A stretch of DNA of 32,000 nt from Blattabacterium cuenoti (GTDB lineage Bacteria; Bacteroidota; Bacteroidia; Flavobacteriales; Blattabacteriaceae), in the NCBI GenBank assembly GCA_014251975.1, contig CP059204.1, positions 300,001 through 332,000 of the forward strand. Direction: 5' to 3'. Below the pieces are notes generated by a model, which was given only the letters and a program-made list of their open reading frames with translations, was not told the DNA's origin and did not search any database. The position numbers and the translations under genes are program-made. Position 1 is the stretch's first letter, and the number at the start of each line of letters is the position of its first letter. Positions 1,676-30,215 of this stretch are shown here, in pieces.

Positions 1676-4099
1676 GTGAATAAAAATCCTAATTTAATCT
1701 ATTATTTTAATATATTTATTTTTTATTTCTGGGTAATATTTTTTTTAGGGATATCTATTTTTTTTTTAATTTTTTATGCTGCATCAAAAGAATACTTAGG
1801 CCCTCTACCGAATTCATATGAAATATATAATAATCCTAACAATTTAGCTACAAAGGTATATGATATTAATGGGAAATTTCTTGGAGAATTTTCTAATAGT
1901 AACTCTAACGTATTAAATTACAAAGATTTACCTATCCATTTTATTTCTGCATTATTGTCTAAAGAAGATATTCGTTTTCAAAAACATTCTGGTATAGACA
2001 GAAAATCTTTTTTAAGAGCATTTCTTACTTTAGGTAAAAGAGGAGGTGGTAGTACTATATCACAACAATTAGCTAAGTTAATTTTTACTGGGAAACCAGC
2101 AATTAATAGATTACAAAGAGTTAATCAGAAGATATTAGAATGGATAATGGCAGTAGAATTAGAAAAAATGTATACAAAAAAAGAAATTTTAACTATGTAC
2201 TGTAATAATTTTGATTTTTTATATAATTCAAAAGGTGTAGAAGGTGCAGCAATTACTTACTTTAATAAACATTCATCTCAACTTAAATTAGGAGAATCCG
2301 CTGTTATAGTAGGTATGTTAGAAAATCCATTATTATACAATCCAAAAAATCATCCTGATAGAGCTAAAAGACAAAGAAATTTAATATTAAAGCAAATGAG
2401 AAAATATCATTTTATTAAAGTTTCTGATACTAAATTTCAAAATGAATTAAATAAACCTATAAAAATTAATTTTAAATCAACAAGAAATAATTCTAATATA
2501 CTATCTACTTATTACAGTGAATTTTTAAAGAAAGAAATTAATACTTTTTTAGATGAATATGAAAAACAAACTGGAGTTAAAATAAATTTATATACAAGTG
2601 GATTAAGAATATATACGTCTATTGATAAAAAAATGCAAATAAATGCTGAAAAATCTGTTAAAAAACATCTTAAAAAATTACAAGATATTTTTAATAAAAG
2701 TAAAGTAAAAAATAAAAATAAAAATTTTCCTTTTATAAATTTATCAACAAAAAAATCAAATAGAATTATTATAGCAGCTATTTACAGAAGTCCTTTTTAT
2801 AAAGAATTACGTAAAAAAGGTTTTTCTAATAAACAAATTATAGAAAATTTTAGAAAACCTCGTAAAATTACAATTTTTACTTGGGATGGAGACCAAAAAG
2901 TGTTAATGTCTATATTTGATTTAATTCGTTATCAGAAAAGTATAATTCAATCAGGACTAATTTCTGTAGAATCATCTACTGGATATATTAAAGCTTGGGT
3001 AGGAGGCATTAATTATAATCATTTTCAATATGATCATGTAGAAAAAACAAAAAGACAAGTTGGGTCAATTTTTAAACCTATATTGTATGCAACAGCAATA
3101 AATAAATTTAATTATGATCCTTGTACAAAAATATCAAATGATAGATTCAAATTAGGTAATTGGGCTCCTAGAAATTACAATAATAAATATGGAGGTACCT
3201 TAACATTAAAAGATAGTTTAGCTTTATCTACAAATATTATTTCAGCACGATTAATATCTAAAATTACTGCAAAACCAGTAATAAATATGGCTAAAAAAAT
3301 GGGTATTAAATCTTTTATCCCTAATAACCCTTCTATTGCTATTGGATCTGCAGATTTAACTTTATATGAAATGACAGGGGCATTTAATGTATTTACAAAT
3401 TATGGTATATATGTAAAACCAAAAATATTACTAAGGATAGAAGATAAATATGGCAATGTTATTAAAAATAATACTTCTGTTAAAAAAACTAAAGTATTTA
3501 ATAAAAAAACTTCAAATATGATGTTAAATTTAATGAGAGGTGTAGTAAAATATGGTACTGCTAATAGTTTAATTACTAAATATAAAATGAAAGGGGATAT
3601 TGTAGGTAAAACTGGTACTACAAATGATAATTCAGATGGTTGGTTTATTGGGATGACTCCTAATTTAACTACTGGTATATGGGTAGGATGGGAAGATAGA
3701 TATACTCATTTTGAAGATAACAATATTGGACAAGGATCACAAATGGCATTACCAATATGGAGTTACTACATGAAATCATTATATAGTAATCCTAGTAAAA
3801 AATATAATAATTTATCATTCAATATTGATAATAATTGGAATTGTATAGATAATATTAATAATAGAAAACTTTTTAAAAAAAATGATATAACAAATAAAGA
3901 AACAATAAATAATATTTCAAAAAATAATGATGAAATAATAAAAATTAATAATGATAAAAAATTATCAGAATTAGAAAAAAATAATGAAACTAATGAAGTA
4001 TTTAATGATGATAAAGAATATGATAAAGAATATATTATTAGTAATGAAAAAGAAATAAAAAGTAAAGAAAAAAATAATAATAAAATTGAAAATAAATAA
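1676..4099 (+). CDS. mrcA: Class A penicillin-binding protein (bifunctional glycosyltransferase/transpeptidase, PBP1A-like) with an N/K/E-rich C-terminal tail
   Basis: GTG start directly after an in-frame TAA. N-terminal membrane anchor is present. GT51 motifs: EDIRFQKHSGID and GGSTISQQLAK. Transpeptidase motifs: SIFKP (SxxK), STN (SxN) and KTGTT. Confidence 0.9.
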   Translation: MNKNPNLIYYFNIFIFYFWVIFFLGISIFFLIFYAASKEYLGPLPNSYEIYNNPNNLATKVYDINGKFLGEFSNSNSNVLNYKDLPIHFISALLSKEDIRFQKHSGIDRKSFLRAFLTLGKRGGGSTISQQLAKLIFTGKPAINRLQRVNQKILEWIMAVELEKMYTKKEILTMYCNNFDFLYNSKGVEGAAITYFNKHSSQLKLGESAVIVGMLENPLLYNPKNHPDRAKRQRNLILKQMRKYHFIKVSDTKFQNELNKPIKINFKSTRNNSNILSTYYSEFLKKEINTFLDEYEKQTGVKINLYTSGLRIYTSIDKKMQINAEKSVKKHLKKLQDIFNKSKVKNKNKNFPFINLSTKKSNRIIIAAIYRSPFYKELRKKGFSNKQIIENFRKPRKITIFTWDGDQKVLMSIFDLIRYQKSIIQSGLISVESSTGYIKAWVGGINYNHFQYDHVEKTKRQVGSIFKPILYATAINKFNYDPCTKISNDRFKLGNWAPRNYNNKYGGTLTLKDSLALSTNIISARLISKITAKPVINMAKKMGIKSFIPNNPSIAIGSADLTLYEMTGAFNVFTNYGIYVKPKILLRIEDKYGNVIKNNTSVKKTKVFNKKTSNMMLNLMRGVVKYGTANSLITKYKMKGDIVGKTGTTNDNSDGWFIGMTPNLTTGIWVGWEDRYTHFEDNNIGQGSQMALPIWSYYMKSLYSNPSKKYNNLSFNIDNNWNCIDNINNRKLFKKNDITNKETINNISKNNDEIIKINNDKKLSELEKNNETNEVFNDDKEYDKEYIISNEKEIKSKEKNNNKIENK

Positions 4100-20751: not shown

Positions 20752-21246
20752 TTATTCTAAAAAAAATTTCCCACCAATTTTTTTTATATGCTTCAATGCG
20801 CTTTTACTAAATTTATTTGCATATATAGTTATAGGCGTTTTTAATTTACCTCTACCTAAAATTTTTAGTAAAATATTTTTTTTAAAATTTTTCCTAAATA
20901 AATTTTTTTTGTTAATAATTTTTTTCCCGTCAATTCTTTTTTTGTCTATATAATTTTGAATAGTATCTAAATTAATAAATATTTTTTTTATTTTTGATAT
21001 TCTATTGAAACCAAATTTAGGTATTCTTCTATGTAGAGGCATTTGCCCTCCTTCAAATCCTATTTTTTTAGAATATCCAGATCTAGATTTAGCACCTTTA
21101 TGTCCTCTACCACAGGTACCACCTTTTCCTGATCCTTGCCCTCTTCCCAAACGAATTTTGTTTTTTTTATTGTATGATTTTAAAGGTATTAAATTTTTTT
21201 TAAAAAAATAAGATATTTTTGATTTATTACTTTTATTATTATCCAT
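20752..21246 (-). CDS. rplO: 50S ribosomal protein L15. The ATG at 21246 overlaps the rpsE stop by 8 nt; the 21297 start in the ORF track is unlikely.
   Basis: Gly-rich L15 signature [26 protein letters not shown]...[17 protein letters not shown]. Confidence 0.93.
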
Positions 21247-21748
21247 TATATACTTGTCTAATAGAAATTCCTCTTTGTTTTGAAATAATATTTGCATCCC
21301 TTATTTTACTAAGTGCTTTTATAGTCGCTTTAATAACATTATGATGATTAGATGATCCTTTTGATTTAGATAGCACATTTCTTAATCCTGAAACCTCTAA
21401 AACAGCTTTTAAAGCACCACCTGCTATAATACCAGTGCCATCAGATGCAGGTTTTATTAATACTCTAGCCCCTCTATATTTAGCTTCTTGTTTATGAGGT
21501 ATAGTACCATTATATACACATACTTTGTATAAATTTCTTCTAGCTATATCTCCTGCTTTTTTTATAGCTTCAGCTGCTTCTTTAGATTTACCAAATCCAT
21601 ATCCAACATATCCACTACTATTACCTTTTATTACAATAGCACTAAAACTAAAATATCTTCTACCCTTTGTAACTTTACATACCCTATTTACTCCTATTAA
21701 TTTTTCTTTTAACTCTAATTCTGAATATTTTATGTTTCGTTCTTTCAT
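21239..21748 (-). CDS. rpsE: 30S ribosomal protein S5
   Basis: [39 protein letters not shown] and [18 protein letters not shown]. Confidence 0.97.
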
Positions 21749-21758
21749 ATTTATATTT

Positions 21759-22091
21759 CTATAATTTTATACCAGATTTTCTTATTCCTTCAATTAAAAA
21801 TTTTATTCTTCCATGATATAAATAATTTTTTTTATCAAAAACTAATTTTTTTATATTTATTTTTTTAGCTTTAATACCTAATAATTTTCCAACTTCATAA
21901 GATAATTCCATTTTCTTTTTTTTTTTATTTTTTAATTCTAAAATAATTTTATCACTAACTGATGAAGAAGATACTAATGTTTTATTTAATGTATCATCTA
22001 TTATTTGAGCATATATTTCTTTATTACTTTTAAAAATAGATACTCTAGGACGACTTGACTTTCCAAAAATTTTTCTATTGTATTGTTTCAT
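21759..22091 (-). CDS. rplR: 50S ribosomal protein L18 (intact copy; start taken at the ATG at 22091)
   Basis: MKQYNRKIFGKSSRPRVSIFKSNKEIYAQIIDD...YHGRIKFLIEGIRKSGI is typical of L18. The 22136 start would overlap rplF. Confidence 0.93.
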   Translation of the reverse strand: MKQYNRKIFGKSSRPRVSIFKSNKEIYAQIIDDTLNKTLVSSSSVSDKIILELKNKKKKKMELSYEVGKLLGIKAKKINIKKLVFDKKNYLYHGRIKFLIEGIRKSGIKL

Positions 22092-22095
22092 ATTA

Positions 22096-22641
22096 TTAAA
22101 CAGATTTACCAGTTTTTCTTCTAACTTCTTCACCAAAATATCTAACTCCCTTACCTTTATAAGGCTCGGGTTTCCTGAATGATCTTATCTTAGCTGAAAA
22201 AATACCTAATAGTTGTTTATTGTAAGAAGATAAAATTATTATAGTATTGTTACCTTTTGTAGATTGTATTTTTATTATAATTTCTTTTGGTACTTGAATA
22301 AATATATCATGAGAAAACCCTAAACTTAAACTTAATATATATTTATCTATAAAAACAGCTTTATATCCTATTCCAATTAATTCTAATTTTTTTTCAAAAC
22401 CTATACTAACTCCAATTATCATATTATTAATTAATACTCTATAAAGTCCATGTAAAGATTTAGAAATTTTACTATTTTCTTTTCTTCTTATAAATAAATG
22501 ATCATCAGTAATTTTTAAATTTATATTTTTAAATTTTTGATTTAAAATTCCTAAAGTTCCTTTTACTATAATTTCATCATTAATAATTTTTATATATACA
22601 TTTTTAGGAATAAAAATAGGTTTTTTACCAATTCTTGACAT
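22096..22641 (-). CDS. rplF: 50S ribosomal protein L6 (duplication copy 1)
   Basis: MSRIGKKPIFIPKNV...KGTLG...; C-terminal PEPYKGKGVRYFGEEVRRKTGKS. Confidence 0.96.
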   Translation of the reverse strand: MSRIGKKPIFIPKNVYIKIINDEIIVKGTLGILNQKFKNINLKITDDHLFIRRKENSKISKSLHGLYRVLINNMIIGVSIGFEKKLELIGIGYKAVFIDKYILSLSLGFSHDIFIQVPKEIIIKIQSTKGNNTIIILSSYNKQLLGIFSAKIRSFRKPEPYKGKGVRYFGEEVRRKTGKSV

Positions 22642-22652
22642 AAACTATATTT

Positions 22653-23042
22653 TTAAAAAATATAACATAAAATCTCTCCACCTATTTTTTTTTTCTTAGC
22701 CTGTTTATCGGTAATCAAACCATTAGAGGTAGATATAATTGCTATACCTAAACCATTTAATACTTTAGGAATATCTTTATATTTACAATATTTTCTTAAT
22801 CCAGGTTTACTAATTCTTATAATTTTATGAATTACTGGAATATTTTTTTTATAATATTTTAATGCTATTTTCAAAATATTTTTAGATTTTTCTATTTTAT
22901 AGTCTAAAATATATCCATTTTTTAATAAAACTTCAGATATTTTTTGTTTAATATTAGAATATTTAACTTTTATAATATTATGATTTGATAATCCAGCATT
23001 TCTAATTATAGTTAAAAAATCAGCAATTGTATCCATCACCAA
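22653..23042 (-). CDS. rpsH: 30S ribosomal protein S8 (duplication copy 1)
   Basis: [18 protein letters not shown]...; C-terminal [33 protein letters not shown]. Confidence 0.96.
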
Positions 23043-23305
23043 CTAGCTTTTTTTACTCCAGGGATCAATCCTTGAGATACTAAATTTCTAAAAACAATCC
23101 TTGATACCCCAAATTTTCTCATATACCCTCTAGCTCTACCAGTAATAGAGCATCTATTTTTTAAACGCACAGGACACGCATCTTTAGGAAGTTTTTGCAA
23201 TAAATCATAATTTTTATTTTTTTTTAAAAGCTCCCTTTTTTTAGCATATTTCATAACTATTTTTTCTCTTTTTCGTTGTCTTGCTATTACAGATTTTTTG
23301 GCCAT
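23036..23305 (-). CDS. rpsN: 30S ribosomal protein S14, long 89-aa form (duplication copy 1)
   Basis: [17 protein letters not shown]...[27 protein letters not shown]...KASW. Confidence 0.96.
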
Positions 23306-23309
23306 ATTT

Positions 23310-23864
23310 TTATTTTTTTATAAAAGGAATACCTAAAAAAGATAAAAGACTTTTAGCTACTATATCTTTTTTAGTAGAAGTTACAAATGTAACGTTCATT
23401 CCAATACTTTTTCTTATTTGATCAATATTTATTTCTGGATAAATTATTTGCTCAACAATACCTAAATTATAATTTCCATATCCGTCAAAACTTTTATCAG
23501 ATAAACCATTAAAATCTCTTATTCTTGGGATAGAAATAAAAATAAGTCTTTCTAAAAATTCATACATTATTTTCCTACGTAAAGTTACTTTTACACCTAT
23601 TGGCATGCCCTTTCTTAATTTAAATCCAGAGACATCATGTTTGGAATAACAAAAAACTGCTTTTTGCCCAGTTATATTGCTAATTTCCTTTATAGAAAAG
23701 TCTAATATTTTTTTATCAGAAATAGCAATACCAACACCTTGATGAACTACTATTTTTTTTAATCTAGGGACTTGCATTATTGATGTGTAATTATATTTTT
23801 TCAATAAATCATGTACTATTTTGTTATTATATAATTTTTCTAGTTTTGGTTGATAATAAATCAT
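23310..23864 (-). CDS. rplE: 50S ribosomal protein L5 (duplication copy 1)
   Basis: [20 protein letters not shown]...[29 protein letters not shown]. Confidence 0.96.
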
Positions 23865-23871
23865 TATTTAA

Positions 23872-24059
23872 TTATATTTTATCTTTTCTTTTATCTTTAG
23901 ATAAAGATTCTATTTTATCTTCTATTTTATCTTTAGATAAAGATTCTATTTTATCTTCTATTTTATCTTTAGATAAAGATCCTATTTTATCTTTTCTTTT
24001 ATCTTTAGATAAAGATCCTATTTTATCTTTTCTTTTATCTTTAGATAAAGATCCTATTT
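23872..24059 (-). pseudogene. rplX: 3' fragment of rplX (last 62 codons plus stop). It consists only of the repeat tail and has no start codon.
   Basis: Matches 25873-26060 of the full rplX except for one base. The frame is open only from 24075, with no ATG/GTG/TTG. It encodes ...[62 protein letters not shown]. Confidence 0.85.
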
Positions 24060-24092
24060 CTTTCCAAAAATTTTTCTATTGTATTGTTTCAT
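24054..24092 (-). pseudogene. rplR: 5' stub of rplR: 11 native codons, then K and a stop
   Basis: Hand translation gives MKQYNRKIFGKK*. The first 33 nt are identical to 22059-22091 of the intact rplR. A TAG at 24054-24056 lies just across the duplication junction. Confidence 0.85.
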
Positions 24093-24096
24093 ATTA

Positions 24097-24642
24097 TTAA
24101 ACAGATTTACCAGTTTTTCTTCTAACTTCTTCACCAAAATATCTAACTCCCTTACCTTTATAAGGCTCGGGTTTCCTGAATGATCTTATCTTAGCTGAAA
24201 AAATACCTAATAGTTGTTTATTGTAAGAAGATAAAATTATTATAGTATTGTTACCTTTTGTAGATTGTATTTTTATTATAATTTCTTTTGGTACTTGAAT
24301 AAATATATCATGAGAAAACCCTAAACTTAAACTTAATATATATTTATCTATAAAAACAGCTTTATATCCTATTCCAATTAATTCTAATTTTTTTTCAAAA
24401 CCTATACTAACTCCAATTATCATATTATTAATTAATACTCTATAAAGTCCATGTAAAGATTTAGAAATTTTACTATTTTCTTTTCTTCTTATAAATAAAT
24501 GATCATCAGTAATTTTTAAATTTATATTTTTAAATTTTTGATTTAAAATTCCTAAAGTTCCTTTTACTATAATTTCATCATTAATAATTTTTATATATAC
24601 ATTTTTAGGAATAAAAATAGGTTTTTTACCAATTCTTGACAT
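24097..24642 (-). CDS. rplF: 50S ribosomal protein L6 (duplication copy 2, identical to copy 1)
   Basis: The 181-aa translation is letter-for-letter identical to 22096..22641. Confidence 0.96.
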   Translation of the reverse strand: MSRIGKKPIFIPKNVYIKIINDEIIVKGTLGILNQKFKNINLKITDDHLFIRRKENSKISKSLHGLYRVLINNMIIGVSIGFEKKLELIGIGYKAVFIDKYILSLSLGFSHDIFIQVPKEIIIKIQSTKGNNTIIILSSYNKQLLGIFSAKIRSFRKPEPYKGKGVRYFGEEVRRKTGKSV

Positions 24643-24653
24643 AAACTATATTT

Positions 24654-25043
24654 TTAAAAAATATAACATAAAATCTCTCCACCTATTTTTTTTTTCTTAG
24701 CCTGTTTATCGGTAATCAAACCATTAGAGGTAGATATAATTGCTATACCTAAACCATTTAATACTTTAGGAATATCTTTATATTTACAATATTTTCTTAA
24801 TCCAGGTTTACTAATTCTTATAATTTTATGAATTACTGGAATATTTTTTTTATAATATTTTAATGCTATTTTCAAAATATTTTTAGATTTTTCTATTTTA
24901 TAGTCTAAAATATATCCATTTTTTAATAAAACTTCAGATATTTTTTGTTTAATATTAGAATATTTAACTTTTATAATATTATGATTTGATAATCCAGCAT
25001 TTCTAATTATAGTTAAAAAATCAGCAATTGTATCCATCACCAA
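24654..25043 (-). CDS. rpsH: 30S ribosomal protein S8 (duplication copy 2)
   Basis: The 129-aa translation is identical to 22653..23042. Confidence 0.96.
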
Positions 25044-25306
25044 CTAGCTTTTTTTACTCCAGGGATCAATCCTTGAGATACTAAATTTCTAAAAACAATC
25101 CTTGATACCCCAAATTTTCTCATATACCCTCTAGCTCTACCAGTAATAGAGCATCTATTTTTTAAACGCACAGGACACGCATCTTTAGGAAGTTTTTGCA
25201 ATAAATCATAATTTTTATTTTTTTTTAAAAGCTCCCTTTTTTTAGCATATTTCATAACTATTTTTTCTCTTTTTCGTTGTCTTGCTATTACAGATTTTTT
25301 GGCCAT
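25037..25306 (-). CDS. rpsN: 30S ribosomal protein S14 (duplication copy 2)
   Basis: The 89-aa translation is identical to 23036..23305. Confidence 0.96.
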
Positions 25307-25310
25307 ATTT

Positions 25311-25865
25311 TTATTTTTTTATAAAAGGAATACCTAAAAAAGATAAAAGACTTTTAGCTACTATATCTTTTTTAGTAGAAGTTACAAATGTAACGTTCAT
25401 TCCAATACTTTTTCTTATTTGATCAATATTTATTTCTGGATAAATTATTTGCTCAACAATACCTAAATTATAATTTCCATATCCGTCAAAACTTTTATCA
25501 GATAAACCATTAAAATCTCTTATTCTTGGGATAGAAATAAAAATAAGTCTTTCTAAAAATTCATACATTATTTTCCTACGTAAAGTTACTTTTACACCTA
25601 TTGGCATGCCCTTTCTTAATTTAAATCCAGAGACATCATGTTTGGAATAACAAAAAACTGCTTTTTGCCCAGTTATATTGCTAATTTCCTTTATAGAAAA
25701 GTCTAATATTTTTTTATCAGAAATAGCAATACCAACACCTTGATGAACTACTATTTTTTTTAATCTAGGGACTTGCATTATTGATGTGTAATTATATTTT
25801 TTCAATAAATCATGTACTATTTTGTTATTATATAATTTTTCTAGTTTTGGTTGATAATAAATCAT
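25311..25865 (-). CDS. rplE: 50S ribosomal protein L5 (duplication copy 2)
   Basis: The 184-aa translation is identical to 23310..23864. Confidence 0.96.
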
Positions 25866-25872
25866 TATTTAA

Positions 25873-26343
25873 TTATATTTTATCTTTTCTTTTATCTTTA
25901 GATAAAGATTCTATTTTATCTTCTATTTTATCTTTAGATAAAGATTCTATTTTATCTTCTATTTTATCTTTAGATAAAGATCCTATTTTATCTTTTCTTT
26001 TATCTTTAGATAAAGATCCTATTTTATCTTTTCTTTTATCTTTAGATAAAGATTCTATTTTATCTTCTATTTTATCTTTAGATAAAGATCCTATTTTATA
26101 TTCTATTTTTTTAGATAAAGATTCTGATATTTTTTTTAAATTAGAAATATGTATTGGTGATTCTATTTCTACAATTTTACCTTTAGTATTTTGTTTATTC
26201 GGTTTAATATGTTTTATACAAACATTTATTCCACTAACTATTACTTTATTTTTTTTTCTTATAATTTTTTTTATAACACCCTTAATCCCCTTGTAATTTC
26301 CAGATAAAACTATAACTTTATCATTAACTTTTAATTTATTCAT
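25873..26343 (-). CDS. rplX: 50S ribosomal protein L24 with a repeat-built C-terminal extension of about 85 aa (156 aa total)
   Basis: N-terminal KOW region [24 protein letters not shown] and core ...[16 protein letters not shown]. About seven 12-aa units SLSKDK[IE/RK]DKI[E/G] follow. The ATGA overlap with the rplN stop is present. Confidence 0.93.
25876..26119 (-). repeat. In-frame 36-bp tandem repeat array in the 3' part of rplX: five full units in two sequence types, one degenerate 33-nt unit, and one partial terminal unit
   Basis: Units start at 25907, 25943, 25979, 26015, 26051 and 26087. Type A is gattctattttatcttctattttatctttagataaa (U1, U2, U5). Type B is gatcctattttatcttttcttttatctttagataaa (U3, U4). 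The types differ at 3 of 36 positions, and units of the same type are identical. Confidence 0.9.
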
Positions 26344-26717
26344 AATACTTCTTGTGCTAAAGAAATAATTTTCATATATTTTTTTTCTCTAAGTTCTCTA
26401 GCTACTGGGCCAAATACTCTTGTACCTATTATTTCTCCAGAAGGATTAATTAATACACATGCATTATCATCAAAACTAATATAAGATCCATCTTTTCTTT
26501 TCATTTTACTTTTAGTTCTAATAATTACTGCTTTATAAATTTTTCCCTTTTTAATATCACTAATACTGGATACAGGAATGGCAGATTTTATGGTAATTAT
26601 CACAGAATCTCCTAATAATGCATATCTTTTACCTGTACCACCCAAAACACGTATAATTAGCGCAATTTTTGCACCAGTATTATCCGATACTTTACAAATA
26701 GATTCTTGTTGTAACAT
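26340..26717 (-). CDS. rplN: 50S ribosomal protein L14
   Basis: [17 protein letters not shown]...[36 protein letters not shown]. Confidence 0.97.
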
Positions 26718-26727
26718 AAATTAAAAA

Positions 26728-26994
26728 TTACTTATTAATTATACCAATTAATCTCCAACATTTATTTTTACTAATAGGTCTAGTTTCCATAATGTTTACT
26801 TTATCACCTTTTTTAGAAATATTTTTTTCATCATGAACAAAATATTTTTTTTTTTTTAAAATTCTTTTTCCATAATATTTATGTTTAACAATTCTTGTTT
26901 CATAAACAATAACAGTTTTATTCATTTTATTGCTAATTACAATACCCATTTTTTTTTTCCTATTCCTAATATTTTGTTTATTTAAAGATTTCAT
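26728..26994 (-). CDS. rpsQ: 30S ribosomal protein S17
   Basis: GIVISNKMNKTVIV...KKYFVHDEKN.SKKGDKVNIMETRPISKNKCWRLI. Confidence 0.95.
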   Translation of the reverse strand: MKSLNKQNIRNRKKKMGIVISNKMNKTVIVYETRIVKHKYYGKRILKKKKYFVHDEKNISKKGDKVNIMETRPISKNKCWRLIGIINK

Positions 26995-26995
26995 T

Positions 26996-27211
26996 TCATT
27001 TATTGTTTTTAATTAAAATCAATTTATCATTTAAAATAGTTTTTAATCTAGCAATATTTCTTCTAATAATTCTAATTTTCATAGTATTCTTTTGCATCTT
27101 TACATAATTATTAAATTTTATCTTTTTATAAATTTTTTTATTAATATCAATTTCATTATATAATTTATCTAAAGAATCTAAAGAATTACTATAATATTTA
27201 TCTTTTTTCAT
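26996..27211 (-). CDS. rpmC: 50S ribosomal protein L29
   Basis: 71 aa and helical, with ...IRIIRRNIARLKTIL.... Canonical position between rplP and rpsQ. Confidence 0.85.
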   Translation of the reverse strand: MKKDKYYSNSLDSLDKLYNEIDINKKIYKKIKFNNYVKMQKNTMKIRIIRRNIARLKTILNDKLILIKNNK

Positions 27212-28999: not shown

Positions 29000-29827
29000 T
29001 TATTTTTTTCTTCTTTTAATAATATATTTATTAGAATATTTATTTTTAGATCTTGTTCTAAAACCTTTAGATGGATATCCTTTTCTATTTCTAGGTATAC
29101 CACCAGAAGCCTTACCTTCACCACCTCCCATAGGATGATCAACTGGATTCATAGCTACTCCTCTTGTTCTAGGTTTTTTACCAATATGTCTTTTTTTCCC
29201 TGCTTTTCCATAAGTCTCTGATTGATGGTCTATATTAGAAACTATACCTATTGTAGCCATACAACTAGTGATTATTAATCTTATTTCTCCAGAAGGAAAT
29301 TTAATTGTAGCATATTTAGAATCTTTTGCAAATAATTGTGCAAAAGATCCAGCACTCCTAGCAATTTTAGCACCTTGACCTGGATTTATTTCTATGCAAG
29401 AAATATTAGTTCCCAATGGAATTTTACTTAAAAAAGTAGCATTTCCTATATTGAAAGGGACATCTGAACCGGAAATTATTCTCTGTCCAATTTTAAATCC
29501 ATTAATTGTTATAATATATTTTTTTTCTCCATCTGTATAATGTAATAAAGAAATAAAAGAAGATCTATTAGGATCATATTCTATAGATTTAATAATAGCA
29601 GGAACGTTAAATTTATTTCTTTTAAAATCAATTATTCTATATTTTTTTTTATGTCCTCCTCCAAAATTTCTTATTGTTCTTTTTCCATAAGAATTTCTTC
29701 CTCCAGTTTTACATATTCCCTTTGTTAACACTTTTTCAAATTTATTATTAGTTAACTCATTAAATATATTAACAGTTCTAAACCTTTGTCCCGGTGTTGT
29801 AGGTTTTAATTTTTTTATTATTGACAT
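29000..29827 (-). CDS. rplB: 50S ribosomal protein L2
   Basis: [13 protein letters not shown]...; ...[20 protein letters not shown]... Confidence 0.97.
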
Positions 29828-30215
29828 TTAAATTTTGTTTATTATCATTTTTATTAAAATGTTTATTATTATTGTTATTTACAATTAAATTTTGTTTATT
29901 ATTATTGTTATTTACAATTAAATTTTGTTTATTTTTTATAATATTAATTTTTTTATTATCTTTAAATTGTATTATAGCTTTTTTTATTCGTTTACTTCTA
30001 CCTCTATTTATTGATAAAATTTTTTTAGAAGATTTATACTTATTTTTTTTTGGATAAATTATAGTTTTAACTGATTTTACTTCAACTCCAAAAATATTAT
30101 AAATTTCTTGTTTAATTTGATGTTTATTATATTTATTAGATAAAAGAAAAGTATAAAAATTATTTTTTTCTATATCTAATGATTTTTTAGTAAAAAAAGG
30201 TCTAATTATAATCAT
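29778..30215 (-). CDS. rplW: 50S ribosomal protein L23 with an Asn-rich, repeat-containing C-terminal extension of about 50 aa that overlaps the rplB start by 50 nt
   Basis: L23 core ...FTKKSLDIEKNNFYTFLLSNKYNKHQIKQEIYNIFGVEVKSVKT...KKAIIQFKDN. It is followed by [39 protein letters not shown].... Confidence 0.88.
   Translation of the reverse strand: MIIIRPFFTKKSLDIEKNNFYTFLLSNKYNKHQIKQEIYNIFGVEVKSVKTIIYPKKNKYKSSKKILSINRGRSKRIKKAIIQFKDNKKINIIKNKQNLIVNNNNNKQNLIVNNNNNKHFNKNDNKQNLNVNNKKIKTYNTGTKV
29864..29929 (-). repeat. Two perfect in-frame 33-bp tandem units in the 3' extension of rplW, with a partial related copy at 29828-29844
   Basis: tattattattgttatttacaattaaattttgtt occurs at 29864-29896 and again at 29897-29929. 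I checked this base by base. Confidence 0.9.

Follow-up and report, generated by a model that had tools for sequence, protein, structure and literature searches.

A near-perfect 2,001-bp head-to-tail repeat of rplE-rpsN-rpsH-rplF in the chromosome record of a Blattabacterium cuenoti strain, a probable finishing artefact

Results

We analysed a 32,000-nt window of the Blattabacterium cuenoti record CP059204.1, and all coordinates given here are those of the window. Using NCBIfam, we confirmed the identities of genes for uL14, uL24, uL5, uS14, uS8, uL6, uL18, and uS5, all of which lie on the minus strand. Read in gene orientation, the region of interest begins with an intact rplX (uL24, 156 aa; 25873..26343). 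This is followed by rplE (uL5, 184 aa; 25311..25865), rpsN (uS14, 89 aa; 25037..25306), rpsH (uS8; 24654..25037), and rplF (uL6, 181 aa; 24097..24642), each identified with NCBIfam. Next come a 12-codon rplR stub, a 188-nt rplX 3′ fragment, and the same four genes again, assigned by their identity with the first set: rplE (23310..23864), rpsN (23036..23305), rpsH (22653..23036), and rplF (22096..22641). An intact rplR (uL18 by NCBIfam, 110 aa from its ATG; 21759..22091) closes the series. We scanned the coding strand for promoters and terminators and found none above the shuffled expectation.

The first-pass annotation had given the sizes of L5, S14, and L6 as they stand above. It had given S8 as 129 aa; we favour an ATG start, two codons in, over the TTG at 25043, which makes 127 aa more likely. 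It had also started L18 at the TTG at 22136, which we replaced with the ATG at 22091. Because L18 starts at this ATG, the rplR stub (24054..24092) is 12 codons long: translated in frame 0 from the ATG at 24092 it reads MKQYNRKIFGKK, and its stop codon (TAG, 24056-24054) arises just past the junction between the two copies. The orphan rplX fragment (23872..24059) has no start codon. It holds five of seven 36-bp repeat units and the rplX stop codon and lies directly upstream of the second rplE.

To compare the two copies, we aligned the window with itself at an offset of 2,001 nt. We found that 22059-24059 and 24060-26060, 2,001 nt each, differ at a single position, C24053 versus T26054. A near-perfect tandem duplication at 22059-26060 with this lone mismatch had been proposed at first pass, and the full comparison bears it out across both units, spacers included. 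The match is far above chance, and beyond the limits of the block the identity drops to a background of ~0.3. The match cannot be extended by even 1 base at the block edges (22058 A versus 24059 T; 24060 C versus 26061 T). Copy 1 (22059..24059, minus strand), which is promoter-distal in gene orientation, carries codons 1 to 11 of the intact rplR, then rplF, rpsH, rpsN, rplE, and the 3′ 188 nt of rplX. Copy 2 (24060..26060, minus strand), which is promoter-proximal, carries the rplR stub, rplF, rpsH, rpsN, rplE, and the 3′ part of the intact rplX. The two copies stand side by side, head to tail, with one novel junction, as expected of a tandem duplication, and, as the annotation had noted, no gene is lost, since one rplX and one rplR remain intact.

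The left breakpoint (22058/22059) falls after codon 11 of rplR. The right-hand breakpoint (26060/26061) falls in an in-frame 36-bp × 7.1 tandem array at the rplX 3′ end (25872..26125, minus strand), which spans 254 nt and contains internal exact repeats of 63 to 70 nt. Outside the array, the remaining 1,816 nt of the unit show 0 differences between the copies. The novel junction (24053..24060) is blunt and reads ...GATCCTATTT|CTTTCC...; the 33-mer across it is GATAAAGATCCTATTTCTTTCCAAAAATTTTTC, and the native left and right boundaries of the unit are ACTCTAGGACGACTTGACTTTCCAAAAATTTTTC and GATAAAGATTCTATTTTATCTTCTATTTTATC. Compared with the original flanks, the junction has 0 shared nt on either side. 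The mismatch sits 7 nt from this join, a distance that a random substitution would fall within with a chance of 14/2001, or 0.7%. It makes array unit 5 an exact copy of unit 4, and GATCC|TATTT junctions are also present at three other array unit boundaries. We searched a metagenome collection that lacks this organism and found no match to the junction 33-mer or to a single-copy control 34-mer.

The uL24 family profile spans only residues 1 to 84 of the 156-aa protein, and the remainder is a tail of 12-aa repeats. Different, unrelated C-terminal repeat tails occur at the same place in three of seven Blattabacterium strains, and the genomes of these three are no larger than 586 kb. Within the Blattabacterium clade, unstable repeats have a hotspot at the 3′ end of rplX.

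The exact proteins of the block are found in one NCBI record only, a chromosome of 511,065 bp. The best identity in a uL5 homologue search was 72 to 74%, with no closer relative in the databases, and a scan of genome contigs gave a best match of 69%, to other B. cuenoti. A high-scoring 308-aa uL5 match (P0008) was rejected as a relative; it comes from a metagenome contig that is unrelated and whose L5 is doubled internally. The Blattabacterium genome from Euphyllodromia is 511 kb (PMC8382890), and the source strain is almost certainly the short-read assembly of B. cuenoti from Euphyllodromia sp. The first reading of the sequence as that of a reduced Bacteroidetes endosymbiont was correct. This symbiont lineage has the highest mutation rate and has lost its sliding clamp gene (PMC8382890).

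We then looked for the duplication in related strains. It is absent from all 11 genomes compared, in which the spc-operon block is single copy: six other B. cuenoti strains, three of them with small genomes, and five Shikimatogenerans. The comparative papers on the clade make no mention of it; the 67-genome comparison describes near-perfect synteny with four inversions only, and "duplicat" is absent from its text (PMC8382890). We also found that Blattabacterium records are all rotated to one start, which places the spc operon at ~62 to 64% of each chromosome.

It had been suggested that the duplicated unit would form a self-contained S8 regulatory module. We found no support for this. The unit resembles the autoregulated spc operon of E. 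coli in that it would hold both rpsH and the rplE start, the place of the E. coli site. Unlike in E. coli, no RNA family matched, and the region of the rplE start showed no significant fold. An Rfam scan of 21000-27000 (E ≤ 1) returned no match, which bears on the S8 site only if Rfam includes a model of it. The RNA fold from −100 to +50 around the rplE start, at the rplX-rplE junction, was no better than shuffled sequence (z = −0.67), and the fold at the novel junction gave z = −0.17. Thus, the scan and the folds revealed no E. coli-type S8-binding hairpin with an internal loop overlapping the rplE start. The reference alignment of the E. coli site is confined to Gammaproteobacteria, and even insect symbionts within that class have a degenerate site (PMC3616713).

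Discussion

The near-identity of the copies, the blunt junction, the 2,001-nt period, the single mismatch at the junction, and the single-copy state of the relatives are all observed directly; the assembly history of the record we infer throughout. We think that the second copy is probably redundant sequence left from the finishing of a circular chromosome and is not in the organism. In such a history, short-read assembly would have produced a linear contig, the two ends of which came together within the spc operon. One end would have stopped within the 36-bp array at the rplX 3′ end, the spot in the window where a short-read contig is likeliest to stop. The same ~2 kb would have stood at both ends, because an overlap had been left untrimmed or because a pad of fixed length had been added for a closure test or for polishing. 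The record would then have been rotated to the common Blattabacterium start without trimming, and the rotation would have turned the terminal redundancy into an internal head-to-tail "duplication."

We lean toward a finishing artefact because the join is blunt, the period is 2,000 + 1 nt, a breakpoint lies in the 36-bp array, and the copies differ only 7 nt from the join, at 1 position in 2,001 nt. A blunt junction is expected from random abutment and therefore counts for an artefact. A junction made by slippage or template switching usually shows a short stretch of shared bases, and end-joining enzymes are not known from genomes this reduced. The period, 2,000 + 1 or a position ±1,000, points the same way because scripted padding or extraction routinely gives near-round lengths; a biological event would be expected to fall within 1 nt of a multiple of 1,000 in ~0.3% of cases, an argument against a biological origin that is post hoc. 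No other part of the window is as hard to assemble as the array, and so the breakpoint within it counts for an artefact, as does the conversion of unit 5 into a copy of unit 4, since a wrong turn by the assembler in the array shortly before a contig end would give exactly such a change. The single copy in 11 of 11 relatives and a synteny paper that does not use the term also count for it. So do the way in which genomes from this research group were built, from Illumina reads with TCSF-IMRA, gap filling, and reference-guided steps (PMC6022663; PMC11632294; PMC4567559), and the rotation of all the records to one start.

An untrimmed terminal overlap of a circular contig is a standard finishing error, and circularisation tools such as Circlator remove such overlaps. 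The repeat resembles one in its near-identical head-to-tail copies, its blunt, homology-free join, a difference only at the contig end, and one end in a hard repeat. It differs in that the redundancy is internal to the record, so that a later rotation must be assumed, and in that such overlaps come typically from long-read assemblers, and the pipeline here used short reads.

Other points count against a finishing artefact. Unless a pad of fixed length is invoked, it requires a contig end at an unremarkable position in rplR. The usual fate of a repeat in a De Bruijn short-read assembly is to be collapsed, not expanded, and the two-copy layout therefore suggests that a path through the junction existed in the reads. 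REAPR or Pilon checks are part of the group's stated practice (PMC11632294; PMC6022663), and these should flag an unspanned join, which also argues against an artefact.

The main alternative, which we regard as possible but clearly the less likely, is that the symbiont chromosome does carry a tandem duplication, of very recent origin and either fixed among the symbiont's many genome copies or frequent among them. Replication would have gone wrong within the unstable 36-bp array, with the join made 2 kb downstream, in codon 11 of rplR. The template dosage of rplE-rpsN-rpsH-rplF would be doubled within one transcript, and the second rplE would lose its translational coupling to rplX and initiate independently on an A-rich leader. 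One event accounts for both boundaries, and all genes are undamaged. Since the rplX 3′ end is a true hotspot of repeat instability, with unrelated repeat tails in three small-genome Blattabacterium strains, a real breakpoint there is also plausible. A single slippage or conversion event in the array could account for the mismatch, given the GATCC|TATTT junctions at three other unit boundaries. The high mutation rate and the lost sliding clamp of the lineage fit as well, as do graph assemblers that yield a second copy only where a junction path exists and the presence of quality control tools in the group's pipeline.

Against a real duplication stand the lack of microhomology at the junction, the near-round length, and the absence of the repeat from the 11 relatives and the comparative papers. 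The 0 differences in 1,816 nt also weigh against it; at typical endosymbiont rates they would put the age of the event at roughly ≤10^5 years, a figure that is our own estimate and not derived from the data. To our knowledge, near-identical kilobase tandem duplications have almost never been reported in obligate endosymbiont chromosomes.

Short-junction tandem duplications in Salmonella and Acinetobacter arise by illegitimate recombination with 0 to 12 nt of junction homology. The present repeat is like them in its head-to-tail layout, its span of a few kilobases, a junction with scant homology or none, and copies that are identical when young. Unlike this 511-kb genome with no evident selection, those cases were found under selection in free-living bacteria with full recombination and repair. 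Tandem amplification is also found in an obligate insect endosymbiont, Buchnera, at trpEG and the leu genes. The likeness to trpEG lies in a tandemly repeated gene block and raised gene dosage. The Buchnera amplification, however, is plasmid-borne, exists in several to many copies, encodes rate-limiting biosynthetic enzymes useful to the host, and is conserved across lineages, whereas the present block encodes ribosomal proteins, exists as two copies in a single strain, and offers no obvious benefit. We therefore do not find an adaptive amplification of this type: the genes are ribosomal, the copies only two, and the relatives single copy.

Foreign reads are an improbable source of a false junction. 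In that case, the join from the rplX array to rplR would have come from chimeric molecules in the library or from a chimeric insert of Blattabacterium DNA in the nuclear genome of the cockroach, and the assembler would have threaded it into the symbiont chromosome. Thousands of Blattabacterium inserts are possible in cockroach nuclear genomes, many of them chimeric across genome positions (PMC13291636), and the DNA for this group's genomes came from whole fat body (PMC6022663). However, the depth of nuclear copies is far below that of the symbiont, and assemblers normally prune paths of low depth; such inserts are also usually short and diverged, and nothing in the window points specifically to them.

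The first-pass annotation had set a recent event, gene conversion, and an assembly artefact side by side; junction anatomy favours the last, the first is possible, and gene conversion is disfavoured. An old duplication whose copies were kept the same by concerted evolution, a process seen in some endosymbionts at duplicated rRNA regions, is very unlikely. Only the near-identity of the copies fits it. The 11 relatives, the six other B. cuenoti (three of them small-genome) and five Shikimatogenerans, are single copy, and recombination in the clade is reported to be very low (PMC8382890). Genomes of this kind also have a strong deletion bias, and yet even the useless rplR stub and rplX fragment are complete and show no divergence. 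A duplication planted in silico is likewise disfavoured; because a random planted substitution would lie ≤7 nt from the join in only 0.7% of cases, a process-related cause is more likely.

If the repeat is an artefact of finishing, the public 511-kb record is ~2 kb overlong, and it carries four spurious ribosomal-protein genes that raise both its gene count and its estimate of "contamination." Such a record could mislead comparisons of genome reduction, and flagging it is useful housekeeping. If it is instead a real, young 2-kb duplication seeded at a hypervariable coding array, in our view the less likely case, the chromosome that carries it is, among known Blattabacterium chromosomes, the smallest and the one evolving fastest. 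The duplication would then be among very few fresh segmental duplications seen in an ancient obligate endosymbiont and would contradict the "frozen synteny" picture of the Blattabacterium clade. In a lineage whose replication machinery has decayed, it would connect the instability of a repeat array with larger rearrangements. It would let structural instability and ribosomal-protein dosage imbalance be seen directly, as is rarely possible, after the loss of replication-fidelity genes. It would also raise the testable question of how a minimally regulated cell tolerates doubled L5/S14/S8/L6 templates.

Results

Structure of the doubled unit

The first-pass annotation described a near-perfect tandem repeat of rplE-rpsN-rpsH-rplF. 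We compared positions 22059-24059 and 24060-26060 directly and found that the two copies, 2,001 nt each, differ only at C24053/T26054, which bears the description out over the full length. Just beyond the repeat limits, identity at the 2,001-nt offset was at background (~0.3). A repeat finder recovered the same pair and also called, in each copy, a tandem array of 36-bp units at the right-hand end. A doubling of 2,001 nt cannot be chance.

We assigned gene identities with NCBIfam profiles. All the genes are on the minus strand and are given here in transcription order. rplB, rpsS, rplV, rpsC, rplP, rpmC, and rpsQ lie upstream of rplN (26340-26717), followed by intact rplX (25873-26343) and the first rplE (25311-25865), rpsN (25037-25306), rpsH (24654-25037), and rplF (24097-24642). 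Then come a 12-codon rplR stub (MKQYNRKIFGKK-stop, 24092-24054), the junction (24060/24059), and an rplX 3' fragment that has no start codon (24059-23872). The second rplE (23310-23864), rpsN, rpsH, and rplF (22096-22641) precede intact rplR (22091-21759), rpsE, rplO, secY, and infA. This is the stub-then-fragment order originally noticed, and with one intact rplX and one intact rplR present in the ORF order, the tandem layout indeed destroys no gene. The stub stops one codon beyond the join and is out of frame with the rplX fragment.

We also found that rpmD (L30) is absent between rpsE and rplO in the window (20752-21748) and in the B. cuenoti contigs L001 (12199-13165) and L003 (12163-13147). 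The longest rplO ORF runs over the rpsE end. Two antisense plus-strand ORFs run through the 36-bp arrays, at 23780-24100 (106 aa, spanning the junction) and 25781-26296 (171 aa). Both arise from the repeat itself, and annotating them as genes would be unwarranted.

Junction and array

Across the junction, the plus strand reads ...GATCCTATTT up to the join and CTTTCCAAAA... after it. Of the original flanks, the left one ends ...CGACTTGA and the right one starts TATCTTCT. Zero bases are shared with either flank, which makes the join blunt. The breakpoint on the right is inside the 36-bp array at the rplX 3' end. This array has ~7 units in intact rplX (25872-26125) and 5 units plus 5 nt in the orphan fragment (23875-24059), with internal exact repeats of 63 to 70 nt. 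The single mismatch is in array unit 5 and 7 nt away from the join; a mismatch placed at random would fall this close to it in 0.7% of cases. At this site the fragment has GATCC, so that its unit 5 exactly repeats unit 4, versus GATTC in intact rplX.

Relatives and source genome

We found a single copy of the unit in B. cuenoti L001 to L003, recovered in a genome scan, in the small-genome B. cuenoti strains CP059216 (586 kb), CP059214 (561 kb), and CP059217 (567 kb), and in 5/5 Shikimatogenerans genomes, so the duplication is not ancestral. The closest uL5 relatives in a homologue search were from B. cuenoti (72 to 74%). The exact uL24, uL5, uL6, and uS14 sequences each occur once in the protein collection, on an NCBI contig of 511,065 bp. 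No Logan (sequencing-run-derived) copies of these proteins were found in that collection, and the metagenome collection does not contain the organism. Among known Blattabacterium genomes, the smallest (511 kb) comes from Euphyllodromia sp., the fastest-evolving lineage (PMC8382890). A 67-genome comparison reported near-perfect synteny with only four inversions and mentioned no duplication (PMC8382890).

Discussion

The sequence feature is present as first described; a biological duplication is unproven, and a finishing error is more likely. Our judgment rests on junction anatomy, which leads us to lean toward the second copy being a finishing artefact. Redundancy at the ends of a linear contig may have been retained in the record, and rotation to a common start would then move it inside the chromosome. 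The spc operon is at ~62 to 64% of each Blattabacterium chromosome and all records share one start, so such redundancy would land internally, matching the pattern here. The genome set of this lineage was built from Illumina short reads. The same group used the TCSF-IMRA pipeline plus gap filling in other papers (PMC6022663; PMC4567559) and SPAdes, reference-guided scaffolding, and Pilon in later work (PMC11632294; bioRxiv 2026).

Four features fit an artefact better than a biological event: the blunt join, the period of exactly 2000+1 nt, the mismatch 7 nt from the join, which resembles an assembler repeating the prior array unit before a contig end, and the boundary in the array, which is harder to assemble than any other sequence in the window. 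They count against a genuine, recent tandem duplication, which we consider possible but doubtful, although one real event would account for both boundaries and the rplX 3' end is a genuine hotspot of instability in the Blattabacterium clade. Further points count against an artefact: graph assemblers for short reads usually collapse repeats rather than expand them, a join without spanning reads should be caught by the group's stated quality control (REAPR, Pilon), and the round-number argument is post hoc. Less probable still is a false junction through chimeric inserts of Blattabacterium DNA in the nuclear genome, of which cockroaches carry many (PMC13291636), or concerted evolution. Old copies kept identical by gene conversion, another early suggestion, are unlikely given the single-copy relatives and the undiverged, useless remnants.

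An unrelated 1.2-kb metagenome contig (L049, ENA ERZ27318024 k141_322698) encodes at 141-1067 a 308-aa "L5" with its domain pair doubled, evidently a misassembled chimera of two related L5 genes. This case shows that assemblers can create internal duplications.

If the duplication is real, both copies would lie within one transcription unit, and templates for L5, S14, S8, and L6 would be doubled. Promoter and terminator signals on the coding strand did not exceed shuffled expectation. The second rplE would sit behind an untranslated rplX fragment and need its own initiation. We found 0 differences in 1,816 nt outside the array, so the event, if real, would be very young, at a rough estimate ≤10^5 years, a figure taken from typical endosymbiont substitution rates and not computed from data.

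The first-pass annotation also proposed a self-contained S8 regulatory module, for which we found no supporting evidence. [quoted passage not shown] An Rfam scan over 21000-27000 at E≤1 gave no match, and neither a 150-nt segment spanning the rplE start (z = -0.67) nor the new junction (z = -0.17) folded better than shuffles.

Repeat tails on ribosomal proteins

The uL24 encoded in the window is 156 aa, and the family profile covers residues 1 to 84. Its C-terminal tail, ~72 aa in six to seven 12-aa repeats, comes from the in-frame 36-bp array at 25872-26125 within rplX (25873-26343, minus strand). At the same position, the tail in CP059216 is 3.6 13-aa GIKDKGKEEGIKI units from a perfect 39-bp array, and in CP059214 it is EEF x4 and then GTE x12; both are unrelated to the tail in the window. 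The tail regions of these two small-genome strains are at 3827-3967 (Blattabacterium locus L050) and about 3840-4010 (L051). In the other 4 strains compared, including the 567-kb CP059217, uL24 is 73 to 82 aa with no tail. These sequences suggest that the 3' end of a single gene has expanded repeatedly and independently.

Similarly, uL23 (rplW, 29778-30215, minus strand) is 145 aa, with the family profile covering residues 2 to 95 and a tail with two KQNLIVNNNNN units, encoded by a perfect 33-bp x2.2 repeat at 29860-29933. The rplW ORF runs 50 nt into rplB, which starts at 29827. The charged repeat tails on uL24, recurrent and independently derived in eroding Blattabacterium genomes, probably merit more follow-up than the duplication.
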